From Sphaerodactylus townsendi (lineage: Eukaryota): 64,000 bases of DNA. The stretch covers positions 79,856,001-79,920,000 of the forward strand of contig NC_059426.1 in assembly GCF_021028975.2 (NCBI RefSeq), read 5' to 3'. This document shows, in pieces, positions 15,131-60,947 of the stretch (position 1 is the first letter of the stretch; each line of letters begins with the position of its first letter). Below the pieces are notes generated by a model. The model saw nothing but the letters and a program-made list of their open reading frames with translations, was not told where the DNA came from and ran no database searches. A program made the translations under genes and the position numbers.

Positions 15131-15575
15131 GGCCATTTCTGAACAGTGGCAGGAAACGACTCTCCATTGGCATAATTCATTCCGGTGGATGCATGAGGTG
15201 CCTGCGGGTCATCCGGTTCACCTACCTCTCCTCCCTGCTCATCTTTGGACAGCTGGAGGGACATGCCCATGCTGCCCTCTGACCTCTGGGGGTTGGAGGG
15301 CAGCATGGGCATGTCCCTCCAGCCATCCAGAGCTGCACAGGGAGGAGAGGTAGGTGAACAGGAAACCGGAGGGGCCAAAAGCGGTTCCTTCACACCAATG
15401 CACTTTGCACTGCGCCAGCGGAAAGACACCGCTTTTGAAAAACCTTGCTCGGGGACCGAATTTCAAAAGCGGCATCTTCGTGCCACTTTGGGGGGCAAGC
15501 ATGGCGCTGTTGCGATGCAGCAGCGCCAGCTGTTCAAACCGCGCCCCAGGGACGGTGTTTTTACTGTCCCTAGGA
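15131..15575. mobile_element. PIF/Harbinger-type GC-rich MITE, truncated on the right by a hAT insertion
   Basis: Central palindrome 15213-15368; gggacggtgtttttactgtccc shared with 55940-55961. Confidence 0.7.
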
Positions 15576-16097: not shown

Positions 16098-16403
16098 AGA
16101 AGAAGAAGAAGAAGAGTTTGGATTTATATCCCCCTTTCTCTCCTATAGGAGACTCAAAGGGGCTTACAATCTCCTTGCCCTTCCTCCCTCACAACAAACA
16201 CCCTGTGAGGTGGGTAGGGCTGAGAGAGCTCCGAAAAACTGTGACTAGCCTAAGGTCATCCAGCTGGCATGTGTGGGAGTGCACAGGCTAATCTGAATTC
16301 CCCAGATAAGCCTCCACAGCTCAAGCAGCAGAGCTGGGAATCAAACCCGGTTCCTCCAGATCAGAGTGCACCTGCTCTTGACCTCCTACGCCACTGCTGC
16401 TCC
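16098..16403 (-). mobile_element. tRNA/MIR(Ther1)-core squamate SINE (Squam3-like), inserted in an L2-like 3' tail (16014-16535)
   Basis: (gaa)n tail, MIR core cctcacaacaaacaccctgtgaggt, tRNA-like A/B-box head on minus strand; close match to 28790-29066 and 60645-60947. Confidence 0.9.
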
Positions 16404-22275: not shown

Positions 22276-22682
22276 ATATTGTTGAAGGCTTTCATTACTG
22301 GAATCAACTGGCTGTTGTGTGTTTTCTGGTCTGTGTGGTCATGGTCTGGCAGTTTTTGCTCCTAACATTTTGCCCACATCTATGGCTGGCATCTTCAGAG
22401 GCATGTCACAGTAAGTTATGTTTCTCTCTGTGGCACTGTGGAGTAATTGTGAGGTTGGGTATGTATTTTGTCCACCTCACAGGTAAGGTGTGAGTGTGAT
22501 TAGCATTTGCATGTGTTTGGATGGACAAAAAATATACACCACACAATCACTCCACATTGTACCACAGAGGGAAACATATCTAACCATGACATGCCTCTGA
22601 AGATGTCAGCAATAGATACAGGAGAAATGTTAGGAACAACAACTACCAGACCACACAACCCAGAAGATCCATAACAGCCAGT
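22276..22682. mobile_element. Penelope-like element remnant: inverted pLTR pair, each arm with a hammerhead motif
   Basis: Left arm tattgttgaaggctttcattactggaatc...gcatcttcagaggcatgtca is inverted in right arm tgacatgcctctgaagatg...gaaatgttagga; flanks tcttgttaaa / tcttgttgaa. Confidence 0.8.
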
Positions 22683-23019
22683 TCTTGTTGAAGCTTCCAC
22701 CAAACCCAGTTGTATGCAGCAATGGCTACCTTTTGCCGCATACAGTTTTCCACTCAACTTGGAATCTCATCTAATCCATAGGTTCTTATGCATGTACTTG
22801 AAATCATATTCCAGTTAAATGAATGAAAATTATTATCCGATCAACATGCACAAATAGCTTCTCTGAATGTCACTGATACATTGGAATCAGGGGTCATTTA
22901 TGAAAAAGTGTAGTGAATGATAAATAGGTAGTTAACCATACAATTGTTTGTCAGTTCCTGCACTTGAAGACAACAGTGGCAATTGTGATGGCAACTGTGC
23001 ATAATCTAAGTACCTTTTT

Positions 23020-23990
23020 ATGTGGCCCATTCTACCTGTTTTGAGCACAAATAAAATGTTTTCAGGAAGGAAAAAAAGCATGTTGGGGTGGAGTTCCCTA
23101 AAGGTTTTCAACTCCAAGATAGTTCAGCAACTTCTCTATGGAGTTCCTTTATGGATAACTGCATGGAACAATTCTGTTGAAATAATACAATCTGGCTTCC
23201 TATATAAAATACTCGGATTACCACACTCTGTACCATATGCTGTACTATGCTTAGAAACTGGTCAGAACCTACTTGAAACAAGAGCATGGCTGAATACATT
23301 CAAGTATTGGATCAAATTATGTTTTAATTCTGATGTGCACAGTTTAACATATACTGCGCGCCCAGACCTATTTGCCTCCGAATGGTATCAACTTCTTAAA
23401 TCAAAAATTTATTCAATGGGTTTATTACTTGAAGATCTCTGTATGCTGTCACCCAGAGAGATTTTCCAAACCTTAAAAAGCCGACTTCTAGAACAGGAAT
23501 ACTACAAATAAATCATGCTCACCCCTCTCTGTCGGAATAATACTGGAACAGGGGCACATAGCCAAATATCTTGAATTATTAACTGAACCCCAATAGAGGT
23601 GGATTATCACAAGGGCCAGATCCAATACTTTCCCATTGGCCATTACAAAGGGTCGTTAGTTATCCATCCCTCTCCAGGATCGGGTTTGTCCACACTGTAA
23701 AAACCAAGTGGAGACTCTTGCTCACATTATTCTTGACTGTCCGAGATATGTGGGCATTAGGAATTTCTCTCCCAGGCTGGCCCTAGACAAATCTGAAAGA
23801 GACTCTGACAGTTCTGTTGTGGAACTTCTGTTAAACAATACAGATGTCATACTCTTGGAAAAAGTAGCAAAATTTCTTTAGCAAGTGACAGAACTTTCTA
23901 AGTAATGTATACTGCTATATACAGTTTTTCTGTCTGCGTTTTGAATGTACTCCTGATTTGTACTTCATAAATGTCTGGTAACGCTCTAGA
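23020..23990 (+). mobile_element. 5'-truncated LINE ORF2 3' end (RTE-X-like clade) with C-terminal CCHC knuckle
   Basis: QLLYGVPLW...ILGLPHSVPYAVLCLETG in ORF 23020-23511; downstream frame RVCPHCKNQVETLAHIILDCPRY; internal stops. Confidence 0.75.
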
Positions 23991-24283
23991 GCCTATTTTA
24001 AATACCTTATAAAGGTTGTTGTTGAGAGGGTGGGGTTCCACACAGTTCTCCCCCCAAATGATCGGAAAATGTTTGATTTGTGCACAAAATGAACTAGCAA
24101 CTTATTTCCTGAAGCCACTTTTAAAATTCTTCCTGTTTGCTGTGCAGAGAGCAGGAAACATTTTATTTTTTCTGCCTGTATGTAAAGCTTTCCCTTTCAC
24201 CATGCAAATTCTCATATTAAATCTTTGAAGCTTCGAAAATCCTTCACCGAAAATGTTTAAAAGGAGAAAGCATGTTACTATAA

Positions 24284-25103
24284 GGCGCGGCCACGGCTTG
24301 ACCTCGGCCCGCCATTGTGGGTCGGCCGAGACCTGGCTTGAGCGGTGTTTGCCCTGCTCAGGGGGAAGGCGCGGCCTCGGAGCACGGCTCGCGCATGTGC
24401 GGTGGCTGGGCTCCGATTGGTTCCGTGTTCCCACGGAGCCAGCAGGCCATGTCAAATGCAGGTGCCAGCATGTGCTTGCATATAAAAGAAAGCGGCCATG
24501 TGGGCGAGCTCAGTCTCGCCCAGGACGCCGAAGCCTGAGGATCGCCGCTGGATCTTTCAGCCCGGGTGGGTTTTGCAGGAAACGGGGGGGGGGACACCAG
24601 GGCACGTTCTCCGGGGTGGCTTGAAGAGCGGCCGCTGGCAGTTCCTCTGACAGCGGGCGGGCGAGCCGGGAGCGAGGTGCTGGGGGATTCCCCGGCGGCC
24701 CTGGATTACAGTGGTGATCCCTGCCCTCCTCAATTCATTTCAGAAGGATTCCCTGGGTGACGGGGCATGAGCGGGGTCCTGGACTCCCCCCCCCCACAGC
24801 TGCGGAAGGTGTCGGGAACCCCCCTCCTTCCCATGCAGAGGAGTTTTACCCGGTAGTTGGTTGGGGGAGAAAAGTGCCGTAGTTTCCCCAAGCAGCCGGG
24901 GGGTCGGGGCAAATGAGGCTGGAGACTGGCAATGGAGCCTGTGGCTGGAAGCACCAGACCTTTGCACATCATGGAGGGGCCCCATGAGGGAGTTTGGCGG
25001 CAGCCTTTGCCTGGGGGGAGGGGATTGGCCAGCGTAGAGCAAGCAGTGGGACCTTGGAGGGGACCATGCAGTAAAAGTGTGCTGCGGCTTACAAGGGGGG
25101 TCT
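24284..25103 (+). mobile_element. Unclassified CpG-rich insertion flanked by a 35-bp direct repeat (LTR- or DIRS/Ngaro-repeat-like)
   Basis: gaaaatgtttaaaaggagaaagcatgttactataa exact at 24249-24283 and 25104-25138; inside ATTGG (24416), TATAAAA (24481), AGTAAA (~25070). Confidence 0.6.
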
Positions 25104-25155
25104 GAAAATGTTTAAAAGGAGAAAGCATGTTACTATAATTAGCAGGCACAACTGA

Positions 25156-25570
25156 GATGAATTCTGCATGAGTCAAAATCACTGGTGTCGGCCTGGTAAA
25201 AACACCATTTGGAGAGGGAACTTCCCATGGCTGCCACCTCCAAATTGAGGCAGCGCTGCTCTTTCCCCCTTCAAATGGTGTTTTGTTGACTCACTAAACT
25301 AGTGAGTCATTTGGAAAATGGCGGCGTCCACCTGGTGCTGAGCAAATGGCACTGGGTGGAAAGCGCCGTTTTCTGGCATGCCACTTTTTAAATTAATTTA
25401 CCTGTTCCTTCCTGCGTAGCTCTGTCGGGACAAGGGGATCAAACAGAAGGGGCAGAAAATGGCAGACAAAAGAACCATTTCCCCTGAAATGCTTTATTTT
25501 TCCATGCTATGTGGACAAAAAAAGTCAAAATGGTTCTTTTAAAAATGCTTCCTAAATGTTTTCAATGGCT
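25156..25570. mobile_element. Old Harbinger-like MITE remnant
   Basis: gaattctgcatgagtcaaaa resembles TIR ggattccgcatgggccaaaa of 35332; nested palindromes aaaacaccattt/aaatggtgtttt. Confidence 0.5.
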
Positions 25571-28500
25571 GAAAGGGTCATGGTCTTGACTGGGATGCGA
25601 GCAATTAATCTGGTGACAGTAACCATGCTGCATTGAGTACATGTAGAGTCTGTGAAAATGCTGGCATTTTTGGGACAGTTTAACTATAAATAAGGCAAGT
25701 AGTTTTGCATTTCAAATCAATTTTTATAGGTGTCCTCTAAGGCATACAATGGAAATAACTACTGATGATGTTGGTGCACTTTGGATAGCATTTTCAATCC
25801 CTGCTTTTCTCATCCAGTGATTTAATATGTGGAAAAGGTAGGAGGGTTTTTAACTTGGTATTGTTAAACTTGTTGGCAGTAGATTGTGTCACGGAGTCTC
25901 AATTACTGACAAGCACCTAATCCCAAGAGAACAAGGTGAACTCCCAGGCAAGGTTAGGATATGTGGCATGTGAGAAATGTAGGAAGTGAGAGGAGATTCT
26001 AAACTGTAAGTGTCATACTTGGTACTCTTTTTAATGAGCTGTGACTGTGAGGACTGTCAGAACTGTCAGGGCACCAAAGGACCCTTCCTGCTATTATCGA
26101 CAGCCAAGGCGAAGGATGGTGGGACCATCATTTTGGAAATGAAGAAAGGAAATAAGAAATTCAGAAAAGGCCCTGCTTCACTCACCCTCTTCATCCCTTC
26201 TAATGAGTGTCTCTTTATGAAAACTGTGGGGACATATTTTTATAGGTAGCCACTGCTGTCTCTTCACTGCTTTTAAGGTTGCAGACAGTATGAATATTCA
26301 TAGGCAGGCGAGAATCTCTCTCTTTCCCTATATATATCTTAACATAGAGGGATTTAAATTTTGTTTAAAAGCAGGTTGAACTATTTTTAACAAAATAATG
26401 TATTCAAAAGAATTTCCAGGGTGTCCTCTAAAATGGCATTATATTACAGCACCCAGTTTTATATATCATTAAATAAACTGTTCAGAACTGCTGTCTCTGT
26501 CCTCAGCCAGGACCTGACTGCTTGGGTCAATTGACTAAGAGAGAATAAATTGAAATGTAATTTTGACAGGAAGTTACTTTGATTGATAATACATCTCCAT
26601 TGGAGGGGTTTTTACACCCCGCCCTGGATAAAGTTCAACTTTCTCTGATGAATTCTGTGAAGTACTTAGCACCCAACTGTTACTGTGGTAGCCAAGAGTG
26701 CTTTTTAGCAACAATATTTGGTCAATAAGCCTTTTCTTTATTTGGAGACTGGCACAATGACCACACTGATCCATGGAACAGTAACCTCCAGGCTCCTCTA
26801 TTGTATTGCCTTATCATGTGAGGATCTTTGAAGATGGAAACTGCAATGAGAGTAAAGCAAGTGCACAACCCACAAGGTATTGCGGGGCATCTTTTTTCTC
26901 CCACCTCCATTTTTTCTCTTTCCCTTTCCAGAAATCACATAGCCTCTTTTCTCTTCCTGCTGCCTTCTTTCCCACTCATTAGCCAACCTACCTTTATCTA
27001 CAATCCAGTCATCAGCTTTCCCTCCTTCCCTCCTCTAGCAGCCTCTTTCTGGGAAAATTGGCTCAGTGCCTGGTGTGGCCTGTTGCCACAAGTCAGTTGT
27101 GTGATATAGTCAATGGGTTGGACCAGTTGCATAGTGGGGAACCTGCAGAGACTTGCAGGGGGCACCTTGCTTTCCCTGTATCTCTTCCCCACATTAGCTT
27201 GTCACTGCTTCCTCCTGCCACCCTTGTAGCCACCTTTTCCTGATCCCTCCTGTCCTTCCTACTTACCAGTGAACCAGCTTTTTATCTGTCCTCCATCTTC
27301 AGATTGTCATCTGAAACTGTAACCACTATTCCACTTTGACTATAGGTGGGTGGTTGCTTTTGAATAATACAAGCAGCCAGGCCTGTTAGTAGATGCTGCT
27401 GGATTTGGTCCTGATGATTCCTCCCTCAAAGGCTAAAAGAAGCCTGCCCCCTACTGTTGTTATCCAGCTTGGGTCCCAGTTTCCCCAGCTGGAACATGTT
27501 ATTCATCCCTGAGGGATGTGCAGAATTTCCCTGAGAAACTGATTTGGAATTTTCTAAGCTATTTTAGACATCAGAAGAGATTCAATGATATATTCAATGA
27601 TATATTCAATGATAGAGCACGTGTTTTGCATGCAAGAAGGTCTAAAGTTCAACCCTGCCAAATCAAAGGTGTTGAGGAATGTCTCTTTTCTGACATCTGA
27701 GGGAGAGATCTCTCCCTCATCCACCCCCCCCCCACACACACACACGTAGACAGTATTTTAGCAGCACCTGTAATTGGCCCCTAGAAGCATGGGAACAGTG
27801 TTGGAGGTTGCCAACAACAAAGTGGGCATTATTTATTAATTGTTGGAGTTGATTTATTGATTATCTAGAGTGCTCTCCTAGTCTATCATTCTAGAAAGCA
27901 GTATGTGCAGAAAGGGTAGGTGGCATGTGGATTTGTAGAACTACAGCTGTAGCCTTTTGAAAAAAAATTTGGAAGTATAATTTGATATTGACATTGAAGA
28001 TTAATATTTTTCCTCTCTAGTGATTAGTTAACTTTCAGTATTGTTGGATTGTTTAAAGCATAGCAGGGGGATTGAGAGTATGATTTGGTATAGAGCCTGT
28101 ATTTGTTAAAATCCAGCACTTCTGTGGATTGCTGCTGTTGGAAACAAGATGCTAGACTAGGTGGACTTTTGGCCTGACCCATACAGGCTAATGTAATGAG
28201 GAGGGGAAAATATTGTTTTTAATCTTGGAAACAGCACTGACAGATGAAAGAAATAAAATGCAGTGTAATTCACAATAATTCTACAGTAGTACGTGTTATG
28301 TACTTAAGCCCTTCATTGGAGGTAAATCCTACACAGCTCTCAGCTACTTTTACTGCTACAGGACCTATACAAGCAGGAATGACCTATGAATGTCTGTGTC
28401 AGCATAACTGTTTAGACTCATTGGGATAAACTCCACTGAAGCACTGTGCTAGAAGGCTGATTTGGTCATTAAATCTCCAGCATCGTGTATGGGTTTCATT

Positions 28501-28789
28501 TCTTGTGTCACTGATGTGGCCTTTCCTTTTATACCCTGAAGCCATAATCATAAACCTCTTGTGAAGGAATCATGGGGGCTGAAGTATTATAGAGATTTGA
28601 CAAGCTTGAACTTGAAAAACAGGCTCTTTAAGCTCCCAAATGGCTGGCAAACCTGCATACTTTTGGCTTTAATCCTTCAGATATGTCCTGTTTAAATCAA
28701 TCTGCAGTTGGCCCCCTTTTCTTGAGACCAGGTGATGTTTGTTCCTTTTTGGTTTGTTAAGGATAATCTGGTTTGTTAAGGATAATCTG

Positions 28790-29066
28790 TAGGCGGTTAA
28801 GAGCTCATGTATCTAATCTGGAGGAACTGGGTTTGATTCCCAGCTCTGCCGCCTGAGTTGTGGAGGCTTATCTCGGGAATCCAGCAGGGTCACGCCAGCT
28901 GGGTGAACTTGGGCTAGTCACAGCTTCGCGGAGCTCTCTCAGCCCCATCTACCTCACAGGGTGTTTGTTGTGAGGGGGGAAGGGCAAGGAGATTGTAAGT
29001 CCCTTTGAGTCTCCTGCAGGAGAGAAAGGGGGGATATAAATCCAAACTCCTCCTCCTCCTCTTTCT
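28790..29066 (+). mobile_element. Squam3-like SINE
   Basis: Reverse complement of the 16098-16403 element; (tcc)n tail; preceded by a 20-bp tandem duplication tggtttgttaaggataatct. Confidence 0.9.
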
Positions 29067-30516
29067 TAGGGGAATATTTGGCATGGTTTTAAGGTGTATA
29101 CTCAACAGAGAATAAATCCATATTAGCAATATTCTTGTACTCACAACTGGTGTCATTAAAGATGGGCTAAAGGCATGTCTTTCCTGCTTTTGCAGCACTT
29201 GAATATAAATTCACTGAATAGAAAGAAAGGGTATAACAATCTTTTTTAAAAATATAAGTGTAGAAAATGAAGAAGCTGGAAGTGATATACATTTATTTAT
29301 GTAAAGCACACAGATCGCTTAAAAAGCTAAAAGCAATGGGAAAATTAGGTAATTGTAAAATTAATCTCTGGTTTTATTAATATTAGATGAACTATTGAGT
29401 AAAGAGTCAATGGAAACCAAATTTGGAAATACTATGTCATGTTGTACTGTGAAAAAATAAACTCCTTAACTATCTTCCTTGGTCTTTTCCTGTAGTTAAA
29501 GTATCTTTCTTCTTTTCAAAATGTGTTATCCATCTATGAATCATATTGTCTTCTCTTCACTGTACATTGTTGTGATATTATTTATTTATTGGCATTGTAT
29601 TTCCCTAGAAAAATGCCCCTCATTTGGAAAGTATTGAAGTAGTATCAGAAGTAATGATAAGAAAATAGCTTCTGTGTTGGTACAATTCTGATTTTAAAAT
29701 TTGCATATCTGGAGAATAAATTTATTGCACCTGCATTTTTTAGTAATCTGAAGAACATTACTGACTTGTTAATCTCTGAAATGGCAGAAATACATTTAGC
29801 ATTTATTTAAACAACTGCTTCCTTCCTTCCTTCCTTCTCTCCATACGTGAAAACTTAAGCATCTAGATATCAGCATATGTTCAGTGAGTTAATTCTCAGT
29901 GACCTGCCTGATGCATTTATAATGTTGCATTTCCAGCACAAATCAAGAGGATCACATATAACTATTAGGACAGGAGAAATGGATGATCACCTGTTTGAAG
30001 ATGGTTTATCTAGAATGATTCTGTGCTCTCTTTTTTTTGGCATTTTGGGCTACATTATTTGGCCAACTGCCCTCCTGAGCAGTCACTTGTGGCATGAACT
30101 GCTGAATATCATCTTCATTCACGGAGGCTCAGAGAGCACAGATAATGGATATGGCTATTGTTCCTTTCCTTTCTGAGAGATAGGAGTACACTGGCAATGA
30201 AGGATTCCCTGCTGCTAGTTCTGTAGCTTAACCAGCCATCTTCTGTTTGCTGAAACAAAAACAGATGCTGGACACCCAGGGTAGTCACATTCCTGCTGCC
30301 AGACATTGATGCAACATGGTGTGAATCATTTGGAACGTTGTTCACTGATCCTCACCTGCTTCCTCCTTCAGTACTACTTATGCACATACAAAAGATCCTT
30401 AAATTAAATATGCTGTATGGATTTGGACTTTGTTAACAATTAGGATTTGCTTCTTTCAGTCATTGTGCTTTATGAAGAATACTCTGGCGTGTATAACTCC
30501 ATCCCTAATTTAAGCT

Positions 30517-30583
30517 ACTGAAAAAAAGATCTTTTTCAGACTGAAAAAAAGATCTTTTACTGAAAAAAAGATCTTTTTCAGAC
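30517..30583. repeat. Tandem triplication of a ~23-bp quasi-palindromic unit
   Basis: actgaaaaaaagatctttt(tcag) x3. Confidence 0.9.
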
Positions 30584-54668: not shown

Positions 54669-54843
54669 TGTATTGTCGAAGGCTTTCATGGCCGGAATCA
54701 TTAGGATGTTGTGGGCTGTGTTCCAGTAATATTTTCTCCTGATGTTTCATCTGCATCTGCCAGCCACAGATACAGGCGAAACGTCAGGAGAAAATACTAC
54801 TGGACCATGGCCATACAACCCGGAAAACCCACAACATCCTAGT
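54669..54843. mobile_element. Penelope-like inverted pLTR remnant with the 3' half of a hammerhead
   Basis: tgtattgtcgaaggctttcatggccggaatc end; ttttctcctgatgtttc pairs with gaaacgtcaggagaaaa. Confidence 0.85.
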
Positions 54844-55477: not shown

Positions 55478-55995
55478 GGACCCTTCCGCACAGAGGCGGA
55501 AGGGGTTGGGTCGGCGTAACCCGCACCGACCCGATGACACTGGGACCGTCCGCATGAACGGTCCTGGAACCAGCTGGGATGACGGCGCAGAGGTGCGCCA
55601 TCGTCCGGGCGACTTACCAGTCCCGCGGCCCTCCAGCACGTCGCCGAGGCCAGGGGACACGCCCCCCCTGCCCTGCGCAGCCGCTCCAGGGTCGCAGGGC
55701 AAAGGAGGCGTGTCCCCAGGCCCCGGCGACGCACCGGAGGGCCACGGGACTGGTAAGTCGCCCGGTGGTGGTGGTGGGGGGGAAGGCGCTTGGAAGTCGC
55801 TGCCGTTTGCACGGCAGCGGCTCCAAGCCGGCGTTCCCAAAAAACCACGCTGGGGAAGCGTGGTTTCGGAACACCGGCTTTGCGCGGGTCGGGCGGCGCG
55901 ACTGCGCTGCAGCTGCGCCCCCTGTCGAATGGTGGCCTGGGGACGGTGTTTTTGCTGTCCCCAGGCCGCCATATTCCGCCCGTGCGGAAAGGGCC
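55478..55995. mobile_element. Young PIF/Harbinger MITE
   Basis: TIRs ggacccttccgcac / gtgcggaaagggcc; TTA TSD (55475-77, 55996-98); CpGs intact; central ~160-bp palindrome. Confidence 0.93.
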
Positions 55996-60207: not shown

Positions 60208-60644
60208 TTATTGCCCAATCAGGTCCTTCCACTCCTCGGAGGAGAACCTCCTGGTTATCCCAGGCCTGAAAAATATCTGGCTAGCCTCGACAGGGACAGG
60301 GCCTATTCTGTCCTGGCCTCTACCTGGTGGAATATGCTCCTGAGTGAGATCAGGGCCCTGCAGGACTTGAGTTGTTTCCGCAGGGCCTGCAAGATGGAAC
60401 TATTCCACTGGGCTTTTTCTGGAGGCTAGCCGAGCTAAAACTTACTTTTACTGGCCTCTCGGGGACTTTTAGGGTTTTTAAGTCACCATCTTGGTTATTT
60501 TAAGCTGTTTATATTATACTGGTTGTTTTATGGTATTTTAGGATATTTATTGTTGTTTTTATTAAGTGTTGTTTTATGATGTTGTATTGCCGCCCTGAGC
60601 CCCTCAAGGATGGACGGTGTAAAAATTCAAAAATAAATAAATAA
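60208..60644 (+). mobile_element. L2-type LINE 3' end
   Basis: RAYSVLASTWWNML...FRRACKMELF (L2 ORF2 C-terminus), gccgccctgagccc, (aaat)n tail. Confidence 0.85.
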
Positions 60645-60947
60645 AGAAGGAAGAGAAGAAGAGTTGGATTTATATTCCCCCCTCTTTCCTGTAAGGAGAC
60701 TCAAAGGGTCTTACAATCTCATTTCCCTTCCCCCACCCCACAACAAACAGCCTGTGAGGTGGGTGGGGCTGAGAGAGCTTGGAAGAACTGTGACTAGCCC
60801 AAAGTCACCCACCTGGCATGTGTTGGAGTGCACAGGCTAATCTAATTTTCTGGATAAGCCTCCACAGCTCAAGTGGCACAGCAGGGAATCAAACCCGGTT
60901 CTCCATATTAGAGTGCACCTGCTCTTAGCCACAACACCACCACTGCT
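60645..60947 (-). mobile_element. Squam3-like SINE
   Basis: Same family as 16098-16403; tail-to-tail with the L2. Confidence 0.9.

Follow-up and report, generated by a model that had tools for sequence, protein, structure and literature searches.

LTR elements normally end in TG..CA and are flanked by duplications of 4-6 bp (PMC12440569), and tyrosine-recombinase (YR) retroelements regenerate just a short core at each end (PMC7192593, PMC13465315), YR sites having arms of 11-13 bp and a spacer of 6-8 bp (PMC3212892). Whole families can be characterised by long duplications, as in R9 (126 bp) and Dualen, or by duplications of variable length, as in Replitrons (PMC9977147). When retroviral DNA is joined by integrase at one end, host repair joins the other end, often duplicating host DNA, and these one-ended aberrant duplications usually measure hundreds to thousands of base pairs, that is, more than 35 bp (PMC5041404). 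In mouse cells, breaks with 3' overhangs of 43-50 nt lead to tandem duplications (PMC8355091), Tf1 without integrase inserts via short homologies at the ends of its cDNA (PMC11042837), and HIV circle junctions can hold remnants of the PPT or the PBS (PMC5618025).

The window, the whole stretch of 64,000 nucleotides that was analysed, contains a GC-rich block lying between two copies of an exact 35-bp repeat (features of the block and of both copies are given on the plus strand). In its oversized host duplication, its junction homology and its extra bases, this locus is similar to one-ended or integrase-independent insertions of HIV, ASLV and Tf1 (PMC5618025, PMC11042837); unlike those cases, which are laboratory somatic or yeast events with duplications that are usually much longer, it is probably a germline relic of one terminal repeat. 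With R9 of rotifers, Dualen of Chlamydomonas and the Replitrons it shares a duplication well beyond 4-8 bp, but the block lacks an RT, an endonuclease, a Rep gene and a 3' tail, and it represents one locus as opposed to many insertions. It is a real, tidy and probably one-off non-canonical insertion of a terminal-repeat module.

Structure of the block

The 35-mers at 24249..24283 and 25104..25138 are identical at 35 of 35 positions, which bounds their divergence at less than about 8%; the repeat reported in the first-pass annotation is real. Even with as many as 3 mismatches allowed, the 35-mer occurs in the window at these two places only, and 100 shuffles gave none. The flank to the left of the block ends in TTAC and that to the right begins with AGGG. 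The 820-bp core has a GC content of 0.645 and a CpG observed/expected ratio of 0.59 in a window of about 40% GC, in agreement with the annotated GC- and CpG-rich block in AT-rich surroundings. Self-BLAST revealed no second copy of the insert or of the repeat that hosts it in the window. The block had also been said to hold no credible ORF, and none of the 12 stop-to-stop frames of 60 or more aa that overlap it (proteins 45-55 and flank frame 44) matched Pfam. Likewise, neither Rfam (gathering thresholds and E<=1) nor ARAGORN returned an RNA family or tRNA match, and a 3' poly(A) or simple-repeat tail, the criterion for LINE/SINE insertion by TPRT, is absent from the sequence, as had been stated for the poly(A) tail.

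The inverted ends of the block and its relatives begin at one base, 24279. The left arm TATAAGGCGCGGC (24279..24291), which begins with TA where TG is canonical, pairs in inverted orientation with the right arm GCTGCGGCTTACA (25081..25093), which finishes in CA, at 10 of 13 positions. Among all combinations of starts 24268-24295 with ends 25075-25111 this pair scored best, the last 5 bases of the left repeat being counted as element and the start at 24279 being set by the relatives; equally good arms were obtained in 25 of 1468 core windows and in 11 of 3000 end shuffles. In view of these imperfect arms, the claim that the block has no TIRs and no TG..CA ends is not confirmed; the left end has TA (24279-24280) and the right end has CA (25092-25093). 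The TA start coincides with the overlap with the target, TATAA (24279-24283), which forms the last 5 bases of the left repeat and may represent junction microhomology or the element's own first bases. Beyond the CA lie 10 extra bases, AGGGGGGTCT (25094..25103), which may be filler, a polypurine-tract-like remnant or a recombinase-type circle-junction spacer. They consist of G6, two bases and TG, like a 2-LTR junction, and 5 of the 45 G6 starts in the window precede NN-TG, so that the PPT reading is suggestive only. A self-priming PBS was rejected, as the 10 bases show no complementarity to the start predicted for the transcript.

A candidate Pol II core promoter geometry extends over 24416..24516 and comprises an inverted CCAAT (ATTGG, 24416-24420) about 95 nt upstream of the initiator A, TATAAAA (24481-24487) at -31 from the initiator-like A, and the initiator-like TCAGTCT with its A at 24512. 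The inverted CCAAT and the TATAAAA were thus placed at the promoter-like spacing that had been annotated. Of 10 TATA+Inr matches across the window just this one is preceded by a CCAAT, the complete set appeared in 0 of 5000 Markov simulations of the insert, and judged by its motifs the putative promoter geometry is far above chance. Gapped matches to the promoter motif (7 metagenome, 1 viral) were discarded as chance, none of them being BLAST-similar to the insert. The annotated poly(A)-signal-like AGTAAA, a variant signal, was located at 25070-25075, 18 nt before the CA end. The annotated 5' hairpin is present as a CTCGGCC...GGCCGAG stem, but folding was only weakly better than in shuffles, with z -1.8 (12 of 200 shuffles) for the 5' 292 nt and -0.8 for the 3' part, and a structured RNA was dropped on these values. 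Two stems of 8-9 bp were found at 24418-24441 and 24501-24522, and 7 of 200 simulations reached two stems. As far as it can be read from sequence, this anatomy is the layout of a terminal repeat that needs its duplication to replicate, either an LTR or a solo Ngaro A+B repeat.

The flanking repeat and its host

Five runs contain the region, and four of these, public runs that all consist of assembled contigs, were aligned on 23700-25700 at 80% likeness. The four come from two studies and carry three organism labels (X1, organism A; X2 and X4, organism B; X5, organism C), and one of them is possibly the source of the window itself. Both junctions between insert and 35-mer are present in contigs of X2, X4 and X5, and the right junction is present in X1, where the contig crosses it without differences. 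The insert contigs of X2 and X4 start at 24254 and stop at 25133, limits that are expected from a 31-mer graph with the 35-mer on both sides, and in X5 a single contig covers 24254-25138 with 22 substitutions and 27 gap letters. Since the junctions recur in contigs of four runs, a misassembly of the block and its repeats is unlikely, and their presence in contigs of organisms B and C indicates that the structure is real and predates the B/C split. The 15 of 44 joints that were listed include none from an orthologous empty allele, a negative that carries no weight.

High contig depth and joints identify an older high-copy repeat as the host of the insertion, with its left part at 24102..24248 and its right part at 25139..25575 (as flanks of the insertion, 24102-24235 and 25107-25575 belong to it); the right 35-bp copy runs on into it. 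Among the joints listed, paralogues of the host repeat connect the left flank (24168-24254) to the right flank. In the joint from 24254 to 25135 (X2, X4), 28 intervening letters resemble the interior of one 35-mer, with 15 identities over 25 and 53 of 2000 shuffles scoring as well. This single paralogous joint, which has 22 letters on one side, provides modest but direct support for the 35-mer as target sequence. The listed relatives of the block lack the first 30 bp of the 35-mer, and the older host repeat extends across the site, so that the 35-mer most likely represents target that was duplicated; the left copy, by its identity to the right copy and by the start points of the relatives (24279-24290), is likely target DNA. 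The earlier suggestion of a locus-specific duplication, rather than the element's own terminus, is supported.

Nested inverted repeats lie inside the host repeat, with 22-bp arms at 25199-25220 and 25263-25284 and a palindrome at 25287-25309, and this structure (25199-25309), just right of the insertion, could favour breaks. On the left side, organism C has 19 additional bases at 24089 relative to the window. Further upstream, 23005-23900 is the 3' part of an old, very-high-copy LINE on the plus strand, which we take to be RTE-X-like, with a 168-aa frame at 23005-23511, a weak zf-RVT match at 23660-23878 (E 0.003) and very high contig depth. The Pfam search of 120 of the 295 stop-to-stop frames (60 or more aa) gave weak matches at 23660-23878 alone and identified no host gene.

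Relatives and age of the block

The first approximately 290 bp of the block have about 10-20 dispersed relatives (an estimate, contig depth not being equal to copy number), and the listed pieces are 13-18% diverged. In X2 the summed depth over 24303-24570 exceeds that of single contigs roughly 10- to 25-fold, and as many as 18 contigs cover one site. The maximum lies at 24437-24570, and at about 24570 the depth falls sharply. Relatives and contig depth thus define a family-shared 5' module, U3-like or Ngaro A-like (24279..24570), and a 3' module rich in G-runs, R-U5-like or Ngaro B-like (24571..25093). Within the latter, a few relatives match near 24630-24690, and at the 80% level only one copy was seen of the sequence between 24705 and about 25100. 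Depth equals one contig from 24705 to about 25040 (X2, X4, X5) with no rise at 25040-25106, and no sibling of at least 80% over 24705-25040 was found in the four runs. The listed relatives with unmatched upstream letters start at 24279 (two pieces, X1 record 4 and X4 record 20, perhaps one locus), 24287 and 24290, and three further ones begin at 24301, at a contig end; stop points among the listed pieces vary between 24424 and 24533, and none of the relatives listed covers the first 30 bp of the 35-bp repeat. Together with the promoter geometry, the relatives of the 5' approximately 290 bp support the earlier view of the block as a promoter-bearing module that resembles a terminal repeat and whose family is dispersed.

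The insertion had been described as recent, which is at variance with its presence in organism C at 2.6% divergence and with an origin before the B/C split. Substitutions in organism C amount to 22/858 (2.6%) in the insert versus 8/632 (1.3%) in three flank pieces, a difference that is not significant (p 0.09). Eight of the 15 listed organism-C substitutions (24575-25103; 22 in total) are CpG-type, giving p 1e-5 with 9% of sites in CpG and p 0.009 with 22% when deaminated forms are included, the listed rows not being a random choice and one of them (24734) varying within B too. Moreover, 4 of the 11 listed differences between the family and the window are CpG losses in the window copy. In organism C, an 18-bp deletion (25061-25078) removes AGTAAA and a 7-bp deletion lies at 24328, beside the first hairpin. 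Neither the functional CpG island nor the portable CpG-island promoter that had been proposed is upheld by these data, with organism-C changes being CpG-biased, CpGs being lost and the AGTAAA region being deleted. From its sequence changes we infer that the copy has become a relic that is methylated and decays neutrally.

Several other repeats were noted in the window, which is vertebrate-like DNA and whose SINEs and MITEs presumably are squamate, judging by their appearance. An element at 55478-55995, with a GC content of 0.70, a CpG observed/expected ratio of about 0.9, inverted ends and TTA on both sides, is a PIF/Harbinger-like MITE, probably a young one, and a 72-bp relative of it lies at 15503-15574. 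A SINE-like repeat of about 290 bp is present in three copies that are 77-86% alike (16098-16389, 28789-29067 and 60644-60940). A long inverted repeat at 22306-22683, with 95-bp arms that are 83% alike and related pieces at 2076-2238 and 54750-54839, is probably an old MITE. Perfect or near-perfect tandem duplications of 10-29 bp, none of them a microsatellite and in number well beyond shuffled sequence, were located at 2648, 5852, 6144, 21033, 27580, 28750, 35359, 35413 and 58525. At 30516-30583 a unit of 19-26 bp that is palindromic in part has been duplicated exactly, in a complex arrangement like the outcome of repeated template switching at a break.

Origin of the insertion

The explanation that we prefer, tentatively and at slightly under an even chance, is that the block is a solo LTR-type terminal repeat of a low-copy family which was inserted once at a staggered break with the help of host repair. 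Among the alternatives raised in the first-pass annotation, the best reading is the one in which a DIRS/Ngaro- or LTR-type repeat was captured during break repair. Element cDNA would have encountered a break whose overhang measured about 35 nt, or just one end would have been joined by integrase. The left cDNA end would have annealed via the TATAA common to the target, fill-in at the staggered break would have duplicated 30-37 bp of target, and 8-10 extra bases would have come in where the right end was joined; had a full element been inserted, recombination between its terminal repeats would later have left one.

Similar to solo LTRs (Gypsy/Metaviridae, BEL, endogenous retroviruses), the block is about 815 bp long, belongs to a dispersed family, displays CpG decay, carries CCAAT, TATA and initiator near its 5' third and a poly(A)-like signal near its CA end, and has short imperfect inverted termini. 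Unlike solo LTRs, it starts with TA, is accompanied by a 30-37 bp duplication, has 10 bases past the CA and belongs to no internal region that we could find. Two of its features speak against the LTR reading, namely the 5' end, which is TA and not TG, and the 3' half, which has no relatives at the 80% level. U5 ends are usually conserved. We found no full-length element, PBS, integrase or RT, and the label LTR is based on anatomy. There is no 4-6 bp duplication at the inverted ends, where instead 30-37 bp are duplicated, and this length agrees with the earlier exclusion of the normal integrase, hAT and Harbinger routes. A normal solo LTR insertion was not accepted, because the 4-6 bp duplication is absent and only half of TG..CA is present, and a normal insertion into an earlier tandem duplication was likewise rejected, since the inverted ends show no duplication of 4-6 bp. 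Troyka, with CG ends and 3 bp, is a misfit. Perfect tandem duplications of 10-19 bp other than microsatellites number 8 in the window, whereas ten local shuffles gave no perfect ones, and there are also near-perfect duplications of 21 bp and 29 bp, an excess which suggests that short duplications of the break-repair type are common here.

We consider it unlikely that the block is a solo A+B repeat of a Ngaro/PAT-type YR retroelement, with the approximately 290-bp module as A and the rest as B. The corresponding route is likewise doubtful; a circle would attack a TATAA-like target with one strand exchange, and the other end would be repaired or replicated 30 bp upstream. Joining 25103 to 24279 yields 14-bp imperfect arms (11/14) around an 8-bp spacer (null, 25/1362 and 11/3000), an arm-spacer-arm geometry like that of YR sites (PMC3212892), which does not discriminate, since identical arm geometry is expected from LTR ends. 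The target is unlike the G-rich spacer. The solo AB of Ngaro is similarly a GC-rich two-module repeat on its own (PMC8547959), the first module is near the Xenopus A in size (A 236 bp, B 152 bp; PMC9210276), the abrupt change in depth at about 24570 points to two modules, and the TA start is no anomaly for such an element. On the other hand, B would measure 530 bp versus 152 bp in Xenopus and is not as abundant as A, which it would be expected to match, and no YR element was found. Moreover, a long duplication is foreign to YR integration; of the exact 35-bp repeat only TATAA could qualify as a regenerated core, and the 30 extra bp beyond a short YR core mean that an aberrant step would still be needed.

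It is improbable that the block stands for an element family not yet described, whose integration would normally yield a locus-specific duplication that ends in TATAA and measures about 30-35 bp. The repeat is clean and exact, the inverted ends are defined and one relative begins at the same TATAA, as such a family would predict, and the family-wide duplications of R9, Dualen and Replitrons (PMC9977147) keep the idea from being absurd, but there is no sibling of at least 80% over the 3' half in the four runs, repair duplications are common in the window and one locus was inspected. For want of a close sibling, a rare event whose source is gone is favoured over an active family with long duplications. 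To the same improbable degree, an undescribed vertebrate family might possess a loxP-like circle junction (14-bp arms, 8-bp G-rich spacer) that undergoes a single exchange at TATAA. It is no less improbable that replication or repair would then resolve the exchange and that every insertion would have its own 30-35 bp duplication.

A retroposon inserted by TPRT in minus-strand orientation, driven by a LINE or Penelope, appears quite improbable. Its 3' end would lie at 24279-24284, TTATA would have primed it, its duplication would be long and variable, and its relatives would be 5'-truncated. The varied end points of the listed relatives (24424-24533) are compatible with this, variable duplications are typical of TPRT (PMC9977147), and the anole Poseidon cuts AT-rich ATT sites (PMC11167929). 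However, depth peaks at 24437-24570 and then drops instead of falling steadily from the end, there is no poly(A) or microsatellite tail, the Penelope duplications described in PMC3846280 measure 8-10 bp, the plus strand carries both the promoter and the poly(A)-like signal, and the inverted ends would be left unexplained. Rfam gave no match to a hammerhead ribozyme in the block; Naiads likewise have none (PMC8557442). We give little credence to break-repair capture of a templated copy of an arbitrary genomic stretch, in which the long duplication, the junction microhomology and the filler would be repair signatures, but for which the two ends coincide with a family boundary and with inverted arms, and the flat single-contig cover over 24705-25040 (X2, X4, X5) reveals no donor that is nearly identical. 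Finally, the idea that the 35-mer is the element's own terminal repeat, a Penelope 'tail' or an assembly artefact is hardly credible and largely refuted: Penelope-like elements have tails of 30-40 bp (PMC8557442) and the block resembles their pLTR in its TATA and initiator, its hairpins and its 35-bp scale, but the Penelope tail is single-ended and element sequence (PMC11167929), whereas here the repeat is at both ends and likely target, the relatives lack its first 30 bp, the host repeat spans the site and the junctions recur in four runs from two studies.

Implications

In the accessible parts of a largely open-access literature we found no vertebrate LTR or Ngaro family with duplications of about 35 bp; the comparison covered published papers, and the family of the block may already have been named. 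If the improbable loxP-like family were true, its integration mode would be new for LTR and tyrosine-recombinase retroelements in the accessible literature covered, and the recombinase step of Ngaro/PAT elements would be readable from about 10-20 genomic copies. If instead the preferred reading of a repair-assisted solo terminal repeat is true, the block, although a single locus of junk DNA, would be a clean germline fossil of repair-assisted retroelement integration, which is otherwise known mostly from drug-treated or mutant laboratory systems, and it would caution that in genomes of this kind break repair can give rise to flanking repeats that are long and exact.
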